Below, one piece after another: positions 16,942-63,853 of a stretch of DNA of 64,000 bases. The notes under the pieces were generated by a model. It was given only the letters and a program-made list of their open reading frames with translations, had not been told where the DNA came from and made no database searches. The translations under genes and the position numbers were made by a program. Within the stretch, counting starts at the first letter, position 1; the number at the start of each line of letters is the position of its first letter. Source of the DNA: Candidatus Pacearchaeota archaeon (GTDB lineage: Archaea; Nanobdellota; Nanobdellia; Pacearchaeales; GW2011-AR1); assembly GCA_017609205.1 (NCBI GenBank), contig JAFCEL010000001.1, positions 439,224 to 503,223 on the forward strand. The letters are read 5' to 3'.

Positions 16942-17982
16942 ATGGGGTTAGAGGCAAAAAAATTGAAGGTGATTGCTGCATTGATTTTAAGTATGGTTTT
17001 CACACTAATGATAATTCATGCAAGACTTTATGGGACAAGACATTCTTTTGGAAATATTCTTATTAATCTTAATGGCAAGAATGTTACTTTAGAAGAGGCA
17101 GTTAAAGGGGATTATTTAGGAGCTAATTCAGATTTTCCTCCTCCTGGTTTTGAGGTGAATACTACTAATATCAGTTTTGGGCATAATGCTGAGGAGATTT
17201 GGGTTTCTATTAATGGAAGTGAAATGACTTTAGCAGACGCGATAGAGACAGGTCTTTTATGTTCGCTAGCAAATTCGACCACAACTTCTTATTCCTATCC
17301 AAGACCAAACCCAGGACATTATGCTACTGAGATTGAGATGGACATGGGTGACGGTGTTACTTTTAGAACCTTGCAATATGCAATTGATATTGGTTTTTTT
17401 TGTGGGAATTATGAGGGTTATGGATGGAAGACTGGAAATTGGAGTGAATGCTCGGTTTCTTGTGGGGGAGGAATACAGACTAGGGATGTCTGGTGCCAGA
17501 AAGCTGATGGGCAAGTTGTAAGTGATAATTATTGTTCAGGCACAAGACCCGCAACAAATCAGAGTTGTAATACTCAGATGTGCCCTACTGTTTATAATTA
17601 TCCTCAGATTAATCAAAGATATATAGGATATAGTTTTGCTACTCTTTCTAATAGAGAAGTGAATAGTTGTGAGGAATGCAATAGTGATGAAGAATGTTGG
17701 ACAGGAAATTCAGAAACAGGAGAAATAGTTTCTTATTGCCAAAAATGCGATACTTTTGTAAGATTTGGGTCCTGGGTAATGAGCATAGAAGCATCAAAAT
17801 TTTGCGAGAGTAAGGGAAAGGATTTAATTAATTTTACTTTTGATAATGCAGATGTTCTTGGGTGGCAATATCAAGTGGTATTGGGTTGGGGTTGGGGTGG
17901 ATGTGACTCGAATACTTGGTATAATTATGATTGTAACACTAGTGGAATGTGTGAAATAATGACACAAATTACTTGTGGTTAA
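16942..17982 (+). CDS. secreted/membrane-anchored Cys-rich glycoprotein with thrombospondin type-1 repeat and possible C-type-lectin-like C-terminus
   Basis: Signal anchor. WSECSVSCGGGIQTRDVWCQ...CSGTRPATNQSCNTQMCP has the canonical six-Cys TSR layout. There are about 9 N-x-S/T sequons. The C-terminus ends with a ...CDSNTWYNYDCNTSGMCEI pattern. Confidence 0.6.
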   Translation: MGLEAKKLKVIAALILSMVFTLMIIHARLYGTRHSFGNILINLNGKNVTLEEAVKGDYLGANSDFPPPGFEVNTTNISFGHNAEEIWVSINGSEMTLADAIETGLLCSLANSTTTSYSYPRPNPGHYATEIEMDMGDGVTFRTLQYAIDIGFFCGNYEGYGWKTGNWSECSVSCGGGIQTRDVWCQKADGQVVSDNYCSGTRPATNQSCNTQMCPTVYNYPQINQRYIGYSFATLSNREVNSCEECNSDEECWTGNSETGEIVSYCQKCDTFVRFGSWVMSIEASKFCESKGKDLINFTFDNADVLGWQYQVVLGWGWGGCDSNTWYNYDCNTSGMCEIMTQITCG

Positions 17983-35117: not shown

Positions 35118-36092
35118 ATGGCTGAGGAAAATGAAGAGAAGTCTTCTAACGAGAATACAGGGAGTCTTGATGATTCTGAAAGAGGATTTTTAGATATGGT
35201 TAGGGAGAACCCTTTTATTGCTGCAACTATTATTCTGGGTTTGGTTGTGTTTATTTTGATGTTTAATGTCTTTATTGGCACTGGAGGAGTGATTAGTGGA
35301 AATGTTGTTTCTGAGGGTAAGGTTACTGATAATCTTAATGATTTTATAATGGCTCAAACAGGGGGGCAAGCAGAGATTGTTCGAGTGGATGATTTTAATG
35401 ATCATCTTTATGAAGCTATTATAAAATTTCAGGGAAGAGAGATACCTCTTTATGTGACTAAGGATGGAGAGTATCTTGTTCAAGGTTTGACTGCTCTAAG
35501 TGTTCAAGAAGAAGATTCTTCATCACAGGATGTTCCTAAATCAGATAAGCCTGTTATTGAGTTATTTGTTATGACTCACTGCCCTTATGGAACCCAAGCT
35601 GAAAAAGGATTAATTCCAGTAATCAAAGCATTAGGAGACAAAATTGATGCTAAAATAAGATTTGTCCATTATTTTATGCACGAACCTGAAGAGAATGAAA
35701 CACCTAGACAAGTATGTATTAGGGAAGAGCAATCAGAAAAATATCTTGATTATTTAGAATGCTTTTTAGAGGACGGTGATTCAGCAAGGTGTATAATTAA
35801 GACAGGAATTGATCAGAACAAGTTAACAACTTGTATTAATACTAATGCAGATAGGTATTATGAAGAAGATTCTCAATTAAGCAAAGGTTATGGGGTAAGA
35901 GGAAGCCCGACACTTGTTATTAATGGGCAGATAACAAGTAGTGGAAGAGATTCTCAAAGTTTCCTTAACACAATTTGTTCTGCATTTAATGAATCTCCTG
36001 AAGAATGCGGATTAAAATTGTCAAGTTCCTCACCATCTCCAGGATTTGGTTATTCTACAACTGGTTCTTCAACTAGTGCTCAGTGTGGATAA
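35118..36092 (+). CDS. membrane-anchored thioredoxin-fold (DsbA-like) protein with single-Cys CPYG motif
   Basis: N-terminal TM segment and a VMTHCPYGTQ active-site-like motif. Confidence 0.45.
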   Translation: MAEENEEKSSNENTGSLDDSERGFLDMVRENPFIAATIILGLVVFILMFNVFIGTGGVISGNVVSEGKVTDNLNDFIMAQTGGQAEIVRVDDFNDHLYEAIIKFQGREIPLYVTKDGEYLVQGLTALSVQEEDSSSQDVPKSDKPVIELFVMTHCPYGTQAEKGLIPVIKALGDKIDAKIRFVHYFMHEPEENETPRQVCIREEQSEKYLDYLECFLEDGDSARCIIKTGIDQNKLTTCINTNADRYYEEDSQLSKGYGVRGSPTLVINGQITSSGRDSQSFLNTICSAFNESPEECGLKLSSSSPSPGFGYSTTGSSTSAQCG

Positions 36093-41306: not shown

Positions 41307-41412
41307 GCCTCAGTAGCTCAGTGGTAGAGTATCACCTTGGTAAATCTTGATGTCTTAGATTGTTCAAGATTCAAAAAGGTGGGGGTCCCGAGTTCAAATC
41401 TCGGCTGAGGCT
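41307..41412 (+). tRNA. tRNA-Thr (anticodon GGT) with 34-nt intron (41343..41376)
   Basis: Acceptor gcctcag/ctgaggc and anticodon stem tcacc/ggtgg. The intron after position 37 contains an inverted repeat (aatcttga...tcaagatt). T-loop ttcaaat. Confidence 0.75.
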
Positions 41413-54495: not shown

Positions 54496-56490
54496 CTAAT
54501 TTCCACCTTCAATTCTTTTTAGGAAATTACTAATGAATTTTTTATTTCCTTCTCTATCTTTTATTTCTTTGATAGTATAAACAGTCAAGTCTTCTTCGCC
54601 GTGTTTTTCCAATTTAATATTTGCAGGAACTTTTTCTTTTATTTTTTCACTTAGCATGATTTTTTTATCTGACATTGATGCTATTTTTTTTGAGTTTGTT
54701 ATCAAAGTTCCCATACTCATAAATTTGAGTGAATCTTTTTCTTGCTGGGCGATTATTGTTCCGTAATTAATGGATATCCCAAAGTCTATCTTTTGCTTAA
54801 ATAATTTATTGTGCTCTTTGAGAATATCTTCTATTTGTTGGGAGAATTTTATAGCTTTTTCCTCGTTTTTGAATGTTTTTGTTATTGACGGAATGAATAA
54901 GAAGAACATGAAGTTGTTACTTTCGTAAATATAAATTTTATTTTCTTCTGCGAGATTTACTATCTTTTGTAGTGTTTCTTCTGTTTGATCTTTTTTTGAC
55001 TCTATTTCTTTTAAGTTTTTGATGTTGAGGCACACGAGGTTTATTGTTTGTTTGTTTCCTTTTATTGAAAGAGACAATTCTGCTTTGTTTCTTGTTTTTA
55101 ATAGAGATTCTTTTCTTAGAGCTATTTTTGGTTTTACTTGTTCTTTTTTTCGAGTAATATAAGCAAAGAAAGTTTTGTTATAACCCTTTCTGAAAATAAT
55201 GAATGCGAAAAATCCTAGGACTGCTATAAGAAATATCCACGATATCGGATGTTGAATTACTTTTACCATTCCTGAAGATGGTTCTCTAATTCCTACTGCT
55301 TTACCTGTCAGAAGAACCCCTTCTTTAACTTGGCTTTCTCCTTCTGTTATTATCTCAACAGTGTATTTTCCATCTGGAGCAGTAAGAATGTATTTTATTT
55401 CTTCGTCTATTCCCAAGTCTACACTTATATTAAATGTTGAATTTTCTATTTTTATTAGTACAGTGTCGTTGTAGGGAACATTCCCAATATTTGTTATTGT
55501 TAGGGTTTTGTTGATTATTTCTGTTTTGACATCTGCTTTTTGAACTATTTCAAAGGATGATTCTGCAGTAAGATTATTAGAGCCTGCAGTTATGGTCCAT
55601 TCTGCTGGTGGCTCTTTATAGAGTATAGGAATCTCGAGGTATTCGTCTGTAGGAATCTCTGATTTTTTGATTACTGACCCTTGATTGTTTGTTATAGTTA
55701 TCAGTGAAGTTGAGGGGATTTTTTCTCCTGTTTGGTCATGTAGGATTGTTTTTATCTTTGCATTTGTTCCGGGTTCTATTGTCTTATTTTCTAATAATAT
55801 CTCAAGACTCGTTGGAACTTGAGTTATTTTTATGTTATAATTTGCAAATCCTTCATTAGTTATTTCACCCTTTAGATCTTTTTCAAAGACGTCTATTTTT
55901 ACTAAATACTGATCTGCTTTTGTTTCTTTTGGCATAGAGAAGGTTATGTATCCGTAGCCATTATTTACTAATTCAATAATATTGAGATTTTCTGTAAGAT
56001 TTCCTCCTTCAATAGAAACATTCACGAACCCCTCTACGAGTTGATTGTTCTCTTTAATTGCCTCAAATTCAATTGCTATTTCTTCTTCAGGTGCGAATTC
56101 TTTTTGCTCTGTTTTTAGATTTATTTTTATATTGTCAGAGATTTTGAATTCATCAGTTAGCTTTGTTTCTTCTCCAAGGGTTGCCTTGATTTTACATGTT
56201 CCTGTTGAGCGTCCTAGAAATTCTTTTTTTAAGGGGATTGAGGGCTCTCTTGAAATTTCTTCGCCTGAGGATAGGATAATATTTTCAAAATAAGCAAGTG
56301 TTTCTTTGCCATTACAGATTAAGTTTATCTCTAGAGATTCACTAATAGCTTCAAGAGTTTTTACTTTTATTGGAAGTATTATTCTGTCTCCAAGATTGTA
56401 AATGTTGTCTGGTTGTTTAACTATAATTATCTCTGCAGATGCGAAAGAAATCATTGATAAGAGTATTAGTATAGTTAATATCTTCCTCAT
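54496..56490 (-). CDS. surface (glyco)protein: signal peptide, large beta-rich ectodomain, single TM, ~230-aa cytoplasmic tail with degenerate nucleotidyl-cyclase-like pattern
   Basis: Signal MRKILTILILLSMISFASA, many N-x-S/T sequons and TM ISWIFLIAVLGFFAFIIF. The tail pattern KIDFGISINYGTIIA...MGTLITNSKKIAS is read as class III cyclase-like. Confidence 0.55.
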   Translation of the reverse strand: MRKILTILILLSMISFASAEIIIVKQPDNIYNLGDRIILPIKVKTLEAISESLEINLICNGKETLAYFENIILSSGEEISREPSIPLKKEFLGRSTGTCKIKATLGEETKLTDEFKISDNIKINLKTEQKEFAPEEEIAIEFEAIKENNQLVEGFVNVSIEGGNLTENLNIIELVNNGYGYITFSMPKETKADQYLVKIDVFEKDLKGEITNEGFANYNIKITQVPTSLEILLENKTIEPGTNAKIKTILHDQTGEKIPSTSLITITNNQGSVIKKSEIPTDEYLEIPILYKEPPAEWTITAGSNNLTAESSFEIVQKADVKTEIINKTLTITNIGNVPYNDTVLIKIENSTFNISVDLGIDEEIKYILTAPDGKYTVEIITEGESQVKEGVLLTGKAVGIREPSSGMVKVIQHPISWIFLIAVLGFFAFIIFRKGYNKTFFAYITRKKEQVKPKIALRKESLLKTRNKAELSLSIKGNKQTINLVCLNIKNLKEIESKKDQTEETLQKIVNLAEENKIYIYESNNFMFFLFIPSITKTFKNEEKAIKFSQQIEDILKEHNKLFKQKIDFGISINYGTIIAQQEKDSLKFMSMGTLITNSKKIASMSDKKIMLSEKIKEKVPANIKLEKHGEEDLTVYTIKEIKDREGNKKFISNFLKRIEGGN

Positions 56491-56547: not shown

Positions 56548-57705
56548 ATGCTTTTATTGACTATGACAAAAAAAATGAAGGTGACGCCTTATGATGTTAG
56601 AGGTAAGGTTAATTATGATAAACTTATTAATGAGTTTGGAGTAAAAAAATTAAGTGAAGGTGATTTGAAAAGAATTGAGAGGCTTGCAGGAGAATTACAT
56701 CCTTATTTAAGGAGGGGAATTTTTTTTGCGCATCGTGATTTGAAAAGAGTTCTTGACGAATATGAGAAAGGGAACAAGTTTTTTCTTTATACAGGGATTG
56801 GGCCATCTGGACCTATTCATCTTGGACATATTGGGACATGGAGATTGGTTAAATGGCTGCAGGATAGGTTTGATACTGACTTGTGGTTTCAGTTTACAGA
56901 TGATGAGAAATTTCTTTATGGGAATAAGGGGTTTAAGGAGATTAGAAGATGGACAAAAGAGAATATGATTGATATAATTGCATTGGGGTTTAATCCAAAG
57001 AAAACACATTTTTTGGTTGATACTCTTCATGCAGGGATAATGTATCCGGAAGCAATTAAGGTTGCTAAGAAGATAACTTTCTCGACGATAAAAGCATCTT
57101 TTGGATTTAATGATTCAAATAACATTGGAAGTATTTTTTATACTGCTATGCAAACGGTTCCTATTTTTCTTCCAAATATCTTAAGAAACGAAAACAGGCC
57201 TTGTCTGATTCCTCTTGGAGTTGATCAGGATCCTCATTTTAGAATCTCAAGAGATGTAGTTGAAAAATTAGGGCATAAAAAACCTGCTATTTTACATGCA
57301 AAATTTATGCCTGCGTTAAGAGGGCCTGAGGGCAAAATGAGCAGTAGCTTGACTAATAGCGCAATTTTAATGACTGATTCTCCTAAAGAAGTTGAAAGAA
57401 AAATTAAAAAATATGCTTTTTCAGGGGGGCAGAAGACAATTGCAGAACATAGACAAAAAGGCGGAAACCCTGATATTGATGTTAGTTTTCAGTGGTTGAG
57501 ATATTTTGAGGAAGATGATGAGAGATTAAATCAGATAAGAGAAGATTATAAGTCTGGGAGATTGCTAACAAGTGAACTCAAGGAAATTTTAATTAAGAAA
57601 ATAAATGCTTTTTTAAAAGTACATCAGGAGAGAAGAAAAAAAGCAAAAGATAAAATCAATGATTTTTTGTTTAAAACTAGATCTCTCTATAAAATTGATG
57701 TTTAA
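56548..57705 (+). CDS. trpS: tryptophanyl-tRNA synthetase
   Basis: YTGIGPSGPIHLGHIGTWRLVKWLQD (HIGH) and KMSSS motifs. Confidence 0.8.
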   Translation: MLLLTMTKKMKVTPYDVRGKVNYDKLINEFGVKKLSEGDLKRIERLAGELHPYLRRGIFFAHRDLKRVLDEYEKGNKFFLYTGIGPSGPIHLGHIGTWRLVKWLQDRFDTDLWFQFTDDEKFLYGNKGFKEIRRWTKENMIDIIALGFNPKKTHFLVDTLHAGIMYPEAIKVAKKITFSTIKASFGFNDSNNIGSIFYTAMQTVPIFLPNILRNENRPCLIPLGVDQDPHFRISRDVVEKLGHKKPAILHAKFMPALRGPEGKMSSSLTNSAILMTDSPKEVERKIKKYAFSGGQKTIAEHRQKGGNPDIDVSFQWLRYFEEDDERLNQIREDYKSGRLLTSELKEILIKKINAFLKVHQERRKKAKDKINDFLFKTRSLYKIDV

Positions 57706-58231
57706 ATCCTCGGGAATCTATTGGTTGAAGTCTATTGGGGTCTATTTTCAGTTTCCCTTGTTTTAATTTTCTTATTAGACTTTTTTTGTAAAAGTGGGTT
57801 TGCCCGAAATTATAATATTCCCATTCTCCTCTTAGCAAGCCTTTTGCTATTATTAAGCTTTCATGCCATTCTTTAATCTCTTCTTTTTTTGGGTGTAGGA
57901 TTCTTCTTAAGTTCTCTCTATTTTTTGTTGTATTGTCAAAACAGCTATATTGATTGGGATGCAATAAGACTTCTTTAAGTGAGCCTTCACCATTATACTT
58001 TCTTCCATCATTTAGTCTATTAAATGGAGTAATTCCAGCAAATATCTTCTCTCTTGGTTCGCAACCGCTTGTTTCTCCGTAAATCATCATTGCTAATAAG
58101 ATATCTTCTGATTTTTGTTCTAGAATCTTTCTTTCAGATATACCGTAACTTGATTCTGGAAGAAGCAGTCTGCTAACTAAATCTGCTCCTGCCATTCCTG
58201 TAATTTTTAAAAATTGTCTTCGATTCATCAT
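57677..58231 (-). CDS. Tat-signal secreted cell-wall hydrolase (SleB/CwlJ Hydrolase_2-like)
   Basis: N-terminus MMNRRQFLKITGMAGA (twin-arginine). ILLAMMIYGETSG...ITPFNRL...HPNQYSCFD resembles the SleB family. Confidence 0.5.
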   Translation of the reverse strand: MMNRRQFLKITGMAGADLVSRLLLPESSYGISERKILEQKSEDILLAMMIYGETSGCEPREKIFAGITPFNRLNDGRKYNGEGSLKEVLLHPNQYSCFDNTTKNRENLRRILHPKKEEIKEWHESLIIAKGLLRGEWEYYNFGQTHFYKKSLIRKLKQGKLKIDPNRLQPIDSRGFKHQFYREI

Positions 58232-58325
58232 TTTAAAAGCAATTAATTTTGATATTAATCTTATAAATTAGAAGCAAATATTCTCTGATAACTAATTTTA
58301 TAAACCTTTTGTTCTTATTTCGCTT

Positions 58326-60023
58326 ATGAAGATCTTATTACTTCATGTTGATTATATTAGGTTCAAACCCTTGAAGAAAGCATTGAGGAGTGTTGGCGAA
58401 CTTTCTGAAAAAGAGAAGAAGGGCAATAAAGTTGAGGATGCTCTGGTAGTTCTGACTGCTGTTGAGAAAGGCGACAGTGATGTTAAGAAAATCGTTGAAG
58501 AGTTTGTTAAGAATGTAAAAGATGTTGCTAAACAGGTTGGTGTAAAAAATGTTGTTCTTTACCCCTATGTTCATTTATCTCCGGTTCCCTCTACTCCTGA
58601 GCTTGCTATAAAGGTTCTAGATGAAGCAGAGAAGAAATTAAAAAAAGACTTTAAGATTGCTCGGGCTCCGTTTGGTTATTATAAAGAATTTGAGATGAAG
58701 GTTAAAGGACATCCGCTGAGTGAATTGAGTAGAGAAATAACTGCCAGGGAAGAATCAGAAAAGTATGATTATAAGCAATTACTTAGAGAGATTTCAAAGA
58801 CTAAACTGGATACTTCTAAACTAAAGGATAATGATCATAGGATTCTCGGACAGCAGATGGATTTGTTTAGTTTTTCAGAGGTTGCACCAGGAATGGTTTT
58901 TTGGCATAATAATGGATTAATAATTTATAATGAGCTTATTCGGTTCTGGAGAGAGGTTCATAGGGAAGCAGGGTATCAGGAGATAAAAACACCTCAGATT
59001 TTGGACAAGAAATTATGGCAGATTTCTGGACATTGGGAAAAATACAAGGAAAATATTTTTTTAACAGAATATGAAAAAAGGGTTTTTGCTGTGAAGCCAA
59101 TGAATTGCCCTGGAGGAATGTTAATTTTTAAACATAAGCCAAAAAGTTATAAAGACCTTCCATTGAGAGCTGGTGAATTGGGAGTTGTTCATAGACAAGA
59201 ACTCTCGGGTGTTTTAGGAGGTCTTTTTAGGGTGATTCAATTTACACAGGATGATGCACATATTTATTGCACAGAAAAACAGATGGAGGAGGAACTTATT
59301 AGAATAATTGAGTTGGCAATTTTCTTTTATGAGAAGTTTAGTTTGGAGATAGACCATATTGAACTCTCAACTAGACCGGAAAGGAGAATTGGCGACGAGA
59401 AAATGTGGGATCTTGCTGAAAAAACTCTTGAGAAAGTTCTAAGGCAAAAAAAAGTTAATTTTGTAATTAATGAGGGAGATGGGGCTTTTTATGGACCTAA
59501 GATTGATTTTCATGTTAAGGATTCTCTTGGAAGAACATGGCAGTGTGCTACAGTGCAGTTAGATTTTGCAATGCCAGAGAGGTTTGGCCTGGAATATACG
59601 GATAAAGATAATAAAAAGAAAAGGCCTGTAATGATACATCGAACGATTTATGGTTCTCTTGAAAGATTTATTGGGATTTTAATTGAGCATACAAAAGGTA
59701 GATTACCGACATGGATTGCACCTATTCAGGTTCGGGTTTTGAGTTTTACAGATAAGAATATTAGTTATGGAAAAAAGGTTGTTGAAGAATTGAAAGAGAA
59801 AATTCCAAATCTGAGAATTGAAGATGATTTCAGAAGCACAACAGTTCAATCAAAGGTTAAAGATGCTGAATTAATGAGGGTCCCATATATAATTGTTGTT
59901 GGTGATAAAGAAGAGAAAGAGAAAAATCTTGCTGTTAGGATTAGAGGGGATAAGAAAATTGAGAAATTCACAGTGGATAGTTTTGCTAAGAAATTGTCAA
60001 AGGAAATTGAGGAAAGAGAATGA
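58326..60023 (+). CDS. thrS: threonyl-tRNA synthetase (archaeal type with N-terminal editing domain)
   Basis: Class II motifs FRVIQFTQDDAHIYC and HRTIYGSLERFIGILIEH, plus a C-terminal anticodon-binding domain. Confidence 0.85.
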   Translation: MKILLLHVDYIRFKPLKKALRSVGELSEKEKKGNKVEDALVVLTAVEKGDSDVKKIVEEFVKNVKDVAKQVGVKNVVLYPYVHLSPVPSTPELAIKVLDEAEKKLKKDFKIARAPFGYYKEFEMKVKGHPLSELSREITAREESEKYDYKQLLREISKTKLDTSKLKDNDHRILGQQMDLFSFSEVAPGMVFWHNNGLIIYNELIRFWREVHREAGYQEIKTPQILDKKLWQISGHWEKYKENIFLTEYEKRVFAVKPMNCPGGMLIFKHKPKSYKDLPLRAGELGVVHRQELSGVLGGLFRVIQFTQDDAHIYCTEKQMEEELIRIIELAIFFYEKFSLEIDHIELSTRPERRIGDEKMWDLAEKTLEKVLRQKKVNFVINEGDGAFYGPKIDFHVKDSLGRTWQCATVQLDFAMPERFGLEYTDKDNKKKRPVMIHRTIYGSLERFIGILIEHTKGRLPTWIAPIQVRVLSFTDKNISYGKKVVEELKEKIPNLRIEDDFRSTTVQSKVKDAELMRVPYIIVVGDKEEKEKNLAVRIRGDKKIEKFTVDSFAKKLSKEIEERE

Positions 60024-63461: not shown

Positions 63462-63561
63462 GCCCCGATAGTTCAGAGGCCAAGAATGCTGCCCTTTCAG
63501 GAACTTGTTTTCAACTCTTCGGAGAAAGGCAGTGACCCGAGTTCGAATCTCGGTCGGGGCG
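63462..63561 (+). tRNA. tRNA-Glu (anticodon TTC) with 27-nt intron (63500..63526)
   Basis: Acceptor gccccga/tcggggc and anticodon stem ctgcc/ggcag. The intron follows position 37. T-loop ttcgaat. Confidence 0.75.
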
Positions 63562-63735: not shown

Positions 63736-63853
63736 GAGCCTGTAGCTCAGCCTGGTTAGAGCACCAGTCTTATACGACGGTAGTTCATTAGAGCTATTGC
63801 TTATTCCTGTCTAGGAAAGCTGGGGGTCCGCGGTTCAAATCCGCGCAGGCTCA
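63736..63853 (+). tRNA. tRNA-Ile (anticodon TAT) with ~43-nt intron (63775..63817)
   Basis: Acceptor gagcctg/caggctc, D-stem gctc/gagc and anticodon stem ccagt/gctgg. The loop reads ctTATa plus intron. T-arm cgcgg-ttcaaat-ccgcg. Confidence 0.55.

Follow-up and report, generated by a model that had tools for sequence, protein, structure and literature searches.

A predicted exported SleB/CwlJ-family hydrolase at a conserved thrS-trpS locus in Woesearchaeota- and Pacearchaeota-type archaea

A small gene in the genome of a Candidatus Pacearchaeota archaeon probably encodes an exported, peptidoglycan-cleaving enzyme of the SleB/CwlJ family (Pfam Hydrolase_2), and it sits in a gene block that recurs among DPANN (Diapherotrites, Parvarchaeota, Aenigmarchaeota, Nanoarchaeota, Nanohaloarchaeota) archaea of the Woesearchaeota and Pacearchaeota type. 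We analyzed 64,000 nt of contig JAFCEL010000001.1 (GenBank assembly GCA_017609205.1, positions 439,224 to 503,223, forward strand), here called the window, to which all coordinates refer. An original prediction made from this sequence had proposed a SleB/CwlJ-like hydrolase exported by twin-arginine translocation (Tat). The main new result is the gene order threonyl-tRNA synthetase (ThrRS, thrS), hydrolase, tryptophanyl-tRNA synthetase (TrpRS, trpS) and 664-aa membrane protein across DPANN assemblies. Enzymes of this general kind are already known, as archaeal peptidoglycan hydrolases and as GH23 transglycosylases of DPANN archaea. In the literature we searched, neither the small SleB-type family nor its fixed place on the chromosome seems to have been described, although NCBI automatically annotates some members as 'cell wall hydrolase'.

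The gene is a complete open reading frame (ORF). In the ORF listing it spans 184 aa plus stop, and the pre-protein begins MMNRRQFLKITGMAGADLVSRLLLPESSYGISERK. The predicted mature hydrolase (residues 31-184) comprises 154 aa, with a mass of 18.3 kDa, a pI of 9.5 and exactly two cysteines, at positions 57 and 97. The gene and its parts are:

57677..58231, minus strand: hydrolase pre-protein, a signal peptide followed by one Hydrolase_2 (SleB/CwlJ-like) domain
58142..58231, minus strand: predicted signal peptide, residues 1-30, MMNRRQFLKITGMAGADLVSRLLLPESSYG (Pfam TAT_signal, 22.1 bits; predicted local distance difference test, pLDDT, 53-58)
58205..58222, minus strand: twin-arginine motif RRQFLK, residues 4-9 (read directly from the sequence)
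57680..58141, minus strand: predicted mature catalytic domain, residues 31-184 (profile, structure model, matches to the PDB and to viral structures)
58073..58075, minus strand: codon of Glu53 in the Y-G-E motif, aligned with the Glu of the SleB GE motif and invariant in 115/115 sequences

Profile and fold comparisons identify the window protein as a divergent but genuine member of the Hydrolase_2 family with an intact active-site signature. Taken singly, its sequence speaks against membership: it scores 16.8 bits (E=0.011) against PF07486, where the gathering cut-off is 27, and it matches no family in a search of PHROG. Because the single-sequence Pfam match is sub-threshold, membership rests on profile and fold evidence. 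A word-indexed search returned five relatives (NCBI calls one 'cell wall hydrolase [Nanoarchaeota archaeon]'), and an exhaustive profile search extended the family to 771 cluster representatives at E<=1e-3 (228 at E<=1e-10). Among 115 aligned relatives, 93 have a PF07486 match of their own, the best at 1.8e-19. The profile built from these 115 sequences matches two crystal structures of SleB's catalytic domain, with E-values of 5.8e-9 (4FET) and 2.3e-8 (4F55). Searches with less information did not reach this level: phmmer against the PDB with the window sequence gave chance matches only (a BIR protein and a guanylate cyclase), and a five-sequence profile gave no PDB match. The Hydrolase_2 domain of the original prediction is thus upheld by profile and by fold, and the single-sequence Pfam match does not carry it.

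The conserved residues of the family include the GE motif of SleB. The profile alignment pairs the family's 'mifGEarnc...NR' with 'AVYGESRGE...NR' of SleB and also aligns the C-terminal '...H.F' strand. The Glu of the GE motif is reported in the 2012 SleB structure papers to be the catalytic glutamate of SleB. E53, E61 and R72 are invariant in all 115 sequences, and N71, Q94, Y95, C97, F98, P114, P165, H178 and F180 are nearly so. Cys57 and Cys97 occur together in 87 of the 115, and a disulfide between them is possible. Elsewhere in the window, a 324-aa protein with a C-terminal DsbA-like thioredoxin domain (35118-36092, plus strand) suggests a capacity for extracytoplasmic disulfide formation that would bear on this cysteine pair.

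Structure prediction agrees with the profile. An AlphaFold model from the 115-sequence alignment reached a pLDDT of 89.8 and a predicted template modelling (pTM) score of 0.81, with low confidence confined to residues 1-30 (53-58); an earlier model from five sequences was poor (pLDDT 59.5). In a Foldseek search of the PDB, three SleB chains were the only meaningful matches (probability 1.00, target-normalised TM-score 0.63-0.74), and all others had E>3. Among predicted viral structures, Foldseek matched the model to over 40 phage proteins annotated as SleB-like cell wall hydrolases, and the phages in many of these cases infect Gram-negative bacteria that do not sporulate; 9 of the 18 closest relatives of the window protein match the PHROG endolysin family 938. 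A wall-binding domain is absent from the window protein, in which Pfam reports only the TAT_signal and Hydrolase_2 regions, and LysM occurs in 1 of the 115 relatives. We rejected the narrower assignment as a SleB orthologue: the protein has no PG-binding domain and scores 15.8 bits against the NCBIfam SleB equivalog TIGR02869, whose cut-off is 236.5 bits.

The hydrolase gene holds a fixed position between two aminoacyl-tRNA synthetase genes. The conserved neighbors and the region shared with thrS are, in the window:

58326..60023, plus strand: archaeal threonyl-tRNA synthetase with archaea-specific editing domain; conserved divergent neighbor
58232..58325, no strand: divergent hydrolase/thrS intergenic region, 94 bp, AT-rich; presumed promoter region of both genes
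56548..57705, plus strand: archaeal-type tryptophanyl-tRNA synthetase; conserved convergent neighbor
54496..56490, minus strand: 664-aa membrane protein, fourth member of the conserved gene block

We collected homologous loci with a pattern scan of one genome per GTDB species, which returned 25 loci, and with a metagenome scan that added 70, mostly from groundwater. Metagenome-assembled genomes labelled Woesearchaeota, Pacearchaeota, Nanoarchaeota, Nanoarchaeia or 'archaeon', from many studies, account for 23 of the 25 GTDB loci, and Patescibacteria account for the other two. Clustering of ORFs across loci revealed the recurrent block ThrRS(-)/hydrolase(+)/TrpRS(-)/664-aa membrane protein(+). 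Where at least 1.5 kb was available on both sides, 29 of 38 loci had, within 3 kb of the hydrolase gene, an archaeal ThrRS on the upstream side or a TrpRS on the downstream side. TrpRS lay downstream in 32 of the 48 loci with enough downstream sequence and ThrRS upstream in 27 of the 59 with enough upstream sequence; these counts are not all independent, since some GTDB and metagenome loci are the same contigs.

The hydrolase has diverged together with its neighbors. The genomes lie far apart: in pairwise comparisons of the loci, ThrRS has a median identity of 63%, TrpRS of 42%, the hydrolase of 37% and the 664-aa protein of 29%. Distances between hydrolases correlate with those between ThrRS sequences (rho 0.57, p=5e-5) and between copies of the 664-aa protein (rho 0.45, p=7e-6), but show no clear correlation with those of TrpRS (rho 0.12), a set that may include paralogues. 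The phylogeny, which the original prediction had proposed as a check for bacterial origin, could be carried as far as a crude neighbor-joining tree, rooted on a Rhizobium domain and without bootstraps, in which sequences of the Candidate Phyla Radiation (CPR) type fall outside all syntenic archaeal ones. Conserved gene order, co-divergence and this tree together argue for an old, vertically held gene. They indicate one old acquisition, presumably from bacteria, with vertical inheritance at the thrS-trpS site ever since. Sporadic acquisition is ruled out by the synteny and vertical inheritance in Woesearchaeota- and Pacearchaeota-like archaea.

Some relatives outside the archaea differ in architecture. 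Sequence searches of IMG/VR viral contigs and GenBank phages returned no relative, and a plasmid search gave a single one, a 22%-identical Rhizobium 'cell wall hydrolase'. This 621-aa protein (locus L097, 41768-43633 of the conjugative Rhizobium phaseoli plasmid pRphaN831c) is the nearest match among plasmids of cultured bacteria; its Hydrolase_2 domain is C-terminal, and it has a QQFSCWN...DPN motif in common with the DPANN family. Three CPR/Patescibacteria-type homologues of 397-398 aa (L025, L093, L094) carry an extra N-terminal region of about 265 aa before the Hydrolase_2 domain.

The contig comes from a Woesearchaeota- or Pacearchaeota-like DPANN archaeon, and the hydrolase gene belongs there. 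Archaeal core genes in the window code for exosome subunits, proteasome alpha, SBDS, a family-B DNA polymerase, CDC48, Rad50/Mre11-like proteins, FttA/aCPSF1, FEN1, the large and small RFC subunits and RNase P p30. Its synthetases include archaeal PheRS alpha and beta and MetRS in addition to the flanking ThrRS and TrpRS, and Rfam identifies five tRNAs. GC content is about 0.33 across the whole window. The hydrolase gene itself has a GC of 0.330 (z=-0.03), a third-position GC (GC3) of 0.243 (z=-0.32) and a codon-usage z of -0.52 relative to 51 other genes, so the composition check suggested with the original prediction came back native. A 99%-identical protein with the same neighbors lies on an independent 32.5-kb JGI contig, Ga0366832_1002914 of sample 3300033148, which, with the archaeal flanks, bears out the earlier view that the gene is no contaminant. 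Recent transfer, prophage origin and contamination were each considered and set aside, since none fits the chromosomal synteny, native composition and independent contig copy.

The N-terminus of the protein is a twin-arginine-type leader, as originally predicted. N-R-R-Q-F-L-K at residues 3-9 fits the Tat consensus S/T-R-R-x-F-L-K. In a first sample, RR-motif leaders were present in 12 of 27 hydrolase homologues, compared with 7 of 1055 other ORFs (Fisher p=1.6e-16), and these seven are mostly short spurious ORFs. Syntenic orthologues fall into three N-terminal types: Tat consensus (for example NRRQFLK, SRREFLKY, TRRQFLKT and RRRKFLKN), a hydrophobic leader or anchor of the general secretory (Sec) type, and a lipobox-like ...L(A/V)GC. 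All three would put the domain outside the cell. Lipobox-like sequences replace the RR leader at loci L009, L006, L017, L081, L084, L090 and L007 (e.g. ...AALVAGCD, ...MLAGSCE, ...GLVGCD), which suggests lipid-anchored versions of the hydrolase in some DPANN genomes. Homologue leaders finish in a small residue, an aromatic residue and G or A (SYG, AFG, VFG, VYA, SFG), consistent with signal peptidase I. In the window protein this peptidase would probably cut after S28-Y29-G30, where S-Y-G is acceptable at positions -3 to -1.

For the window protein, Tat appears a more natural export route than Sec, because its weak, charged hydrophobic region (h-region) would make a poor Sec signal, a general principle given in PMC5539426. 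Several observations tell against Tat. The Pfam TAT_signal score lies 0.6 bits under the gathering cut-off of 22.7, the NCBIfam Tat-signal model does not report the protein, and its h-region, which contains D17 and R21, is the least hydrophobic of the orthologue set. Escherichia coli and Bacillus subtilis TatA and TatC queries retrieved nothing from the window or from 648 kb of DNA at related loci, a sample too small and biased to settle the matter; our literature search found nothing on Tat in Woesearchaeota or Pacearchaeota. We infer Tat export from the motif: of the original 'Tat-exported', the fit to the consensus stands and the route is the weaker part.

Export by Sec or through a membrane tether, with the RR motif a relic of the bacterial donor that has no targeting role, is a possible but less favored account. 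Same-position orthologues with Sec-type or lipobox N-termini and no RR are what it would expect, as are the scatter of RR-bearing sequences over the neighbor-joining tree, the lack of Tat genes in the sampled DNA and the near-threshold TAT_signal score. Many orthologues nevertheless retain the full S/T-RRxFLK consensus at identities of only 35-60%, which points to selection for the motif, and the poor h-region counts against Sec as well. A more radical alternative, that the gene is not archaeal and derives from a mis-binned bacterial fragment, a chimeric assembly or the endolysin of an integrated virus or prophage, draws on the bacterial or phage origin of the family and on the recovery of two CPR-bacterial homologues. 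It is effectively refuted: archaeal thrS and trpS flank the gene, the 64-kb window around it is rich in archaeal core genes, the same arrangement appears on the independent contig and in dozens of DPANN assemblies from different studies, its composition is native, and neither IMG/VR nor GenBank phages hold a sequence relative.

A different question is whose wall the enzyme would cut. It might serve the cell's own envelope, remodelling an endogenous glycan in growth, division or surface-structure assembly, a housekeeping and not an anti-bacterial function. Candidate substrates would be a murein-like or other polymer containing N-acetylglucosamine (GlcNAc), or the glycans of surface proteins. 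In its favor, many divergent genomes keep the gene at one site flanked by two aminoacyl-tRNA synthetase genes; co-divergence with the neighbors, a core-gene look that contrasts with the patchy pattern reported in PMC12352652, and the constant company of the conserved 664-aa envelope protein point the same way. Yet the window holds no genes for murein or pseudomurein synthesis, we found no literature reporting such polymers in DPANN archaea, and all characterized or annotated relatives act on bacterial peptidoglycan. An obligate need for bacterial wall material would equally explain the core-like conservation. We therefore consider an own-envelope role unlikely, and the variant in which these archaea possess an undiscovered murein-like polymer of their own is less likely too. 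Pseudomurein, raised as a target in the original prediction, finds no footing: no literature we found links DPANN archaea to it, and the known substrates of the fold are murein.

We favor, with some confidence, a small exported SleB/CwlJ-family enzyme that cleaves bacterial peptidoglycan. The pre-protein, with its twin-arginine-type signal peptide, would cross the membrane by Tat if the genome has TatA and TatC, and otherwise by Sec. Cleavage after S-Y-G30 probably frees a basic 18-kDa single-domain enzyme. By homology to SleB, a lytic transglycosylase by established knowledge (restated in PMC7807722), and to the phage SleB-like lysins, it most likely cleaves murein glycan strands at the bond between N-acetylmuramic acid (MurNAc) and GlcNAc, with Glu53 of the YGE motif as general acid. 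Since it has no wall-binding module, the enzyme would be limited to exposed or accessible peptidoglycan. Candidate substrates are the walls of bacteria that the archaeon touches, whether host or prey and including monoderm CPR bacteria, or wall debris that could supply amino sugars and amino acids.

These substrates correspond to two roles that present sequence data would not separate: breaching the wall of a bacterial host or prey locally, and digesting wall debris. The interaction or predation factor of the original prediction is plausible and matches published ideas on DPANN archaea; scavenging, in which wall debris would be digested to yield amino sugars and amino acids, as proposed for Pacearchaeota (PMC11537232), fits equally well. 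If the lineage depends on bacteria, the core-like conservation of the gene agrees with either role. Some considerations pull the other way from an enzyme aimed at bacteria. Activity and substrate of the archaeal family are predictions, the hosts of cultivated DPANN archaea are all archaeal and not bacterial (PMC11291902), and archaeal peptidoglycan hydrolases deployed as weapons are patchy and plasmid-biased (PMC12352652), whereas this gene is stably syntenic beside housekeeping genes.

A stronger reading can be offered tentatively. Rather than an occasional weapon, the hydrolase may be a core gene throughout the Woesearchaeota- and Pacearchaeota-type DPANN archaea, inherited vertically and locked in a thrS/hydrolase/trpS/envelope-protein block. 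Were this so, handling bacterial-type peptidoglycan would be basic to the life of a large archaeal radiation, for example if its members had to attach to bacterial hosts, possibly CPR, or had to feed on murein.

Comparison with known systems sets the family apart from each of its relatives. The spore-cortex lytic enzymes SleB and CwlJ of Bacillus (PF07486; 4FET, 4F55) have the catalytic-domain fold and the GE motif in common with the archaeal hydrolase and presumably the same lytic-transglycosylase chemistry on the MurNAc-GlcNAc bond. Identity to SleB is only about 12-14%. The archaeal enzyme lacks the N-terminal PG_binding_1 domain, the spore context and the YpeB partner, and has an RR-type leader. 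In the profile alignment its QYSCF(N/D) motif stands against AFTAV in SleB, and the Cys of this motif recurs in the Rhizobium 'cell wall hydrolase'. Phage SleB-like hydrolases and endolysins (phrog_938, phrog_15649; Pseudomonas phage pf16, Cronobacter phage GAP31, Delftia phage PhiW-14) also have the fold (Foldseek probability 1.00, E down to 3.9e-6), and close relatives of the archaeal protein match both endolysin families. These phage enzymes act on vegetative murein, so the fold is not restricted to the spore cortex. In contrast to them, the archaeal gene is chromosomal, syntenic and, as its co-divergence indicates, vertically inherited, and it encodes a secretion signal.

Archaeal and DPANN enzymes with a similar presumed target have other architectures. 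Modular peptidoglycan hydrolases occur in about 5% of archaeal genomes, prominently in Nanoarchaeota; signal peptides occur in 32%, and 35% of these are of the Tat type. Two haloarchaeal examples, Woldo and Danwoldo of Halogranum salarium, kill bacteria (Strock et al. 2025, PMC12352652). Like the hydrolase described here, proteins of the Woldo/Danwoldo type are archaeal, bacterial in origin, exported (some with Tat leaders) and aimed at bacterial murein. They combine a catalytic domain (M23 or glucosaminidase) with a wall-binding domain (PG_binding_1) and are patchy and plasmid-enriched, whereas ours is a single Hydrolase_2 domain, stably syntenic and not modular. A wall-binding domain was required in that survey, which thereby excludes the single-domain family, and the portions of its supplements available to us do not mention PF07486.

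Giant GH23 murein transglycosylase proteins have been described in Woesearchaeota and Pacearchaeota, with bacterial hosts or predation proposed (Castelle et al. 2021, PMC8204110; Vigneron et al. 2022, PMC9723730), and similar remarks appear in PMC10936187. The lineages, the presumed substrate and bond, and the ecological inference of hosts, predation or scavenging are the same. The GH23 proteins have an unrelated SLT/GH23 goose-lysozyme-like fold and reach 3,000 aa, compared with 184 aa and the SleB fold here; neither the Castelle supplements nor full-text literature searches mention a SleB/Hydrolase_2 family in DPANN archaea. A eukaryotic parallel exists in the cwh genes of ladybird beetles, Hydrolase_2 genes acquired from bacteria whose recombinant product limits bacterial growth (PMC7807722). 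Pfam family, transfer from bacteria to a lineage without murein, vertical inheritance and (partly in cwh) a signal peptide are alike. The recipient there is a eukaryote, the role is immune, and the published tree nests cwh within Proteobacteria (PMC7807722).

Other features of the locus and window are recorded here. The 3' ends of trpS (plus strand) and the hydrolase gene (minus strand) share 29 nt (57677-57705), and in related genomes the two genes likewise overlap or lie only a few bases apart. The minus strand carries an TTTATAAG element some 30 nt ahead of the hydrolase start codon, ATG. The promoter role of the 94-bp intergenic region is presumed only, because the genome is 67% A+T and a match of the TTTATAAG type comes cheaply. 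The 664-aa protein (54496-56490) has a signal peptide, a long outside region, one transmembrane helix (~413-435) and a cytoplasmic tail of about 225 aa, with no match in Pfam or the PDB. At least 15 DPANN genomes have it beside trpS and the hydrolase gene, and its distances correlate with those of the hydrolase. To the eye the tail resembles a degenerate class III cyclase-homology domain, a resemblance that neither PDB nor Pfam matches bear out. Three of the tRNAs (41307-41412, 63462-63561 and 63736-63853, all plus strand) are 100-118 nt long and were found by Rfam only and missed by ARAGORN; they presumably carry introns, as is typical of archaea. A 346-aa protein at 16942-17982 (plus strand) contains a thrombospondin type-1 repeat (Pfam TSP1_ADAMTS E=8e-14; TSP_1 E=5.7e-6), a eukaryote-type adhesion module that is unusual in an archaeal genome.

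Among the uncultured archaea of groundwater and sediments, Woesearchaeota and Pacearchaeota rank with the most abundant. The hydrolase offers a practical handle on their hosts and food sources, because it is small, conserved, predicted to be exported, easy to express and encoded at one fixed locus; its substrate range on sacculi of candidate partner bacteria could point to the partners of these archaea. The family adds a single-domain member to the recently recognized peptidoglycan hydrolases of archaea, and such conservation suggests a lineage-wide importance of bacterial wall material.

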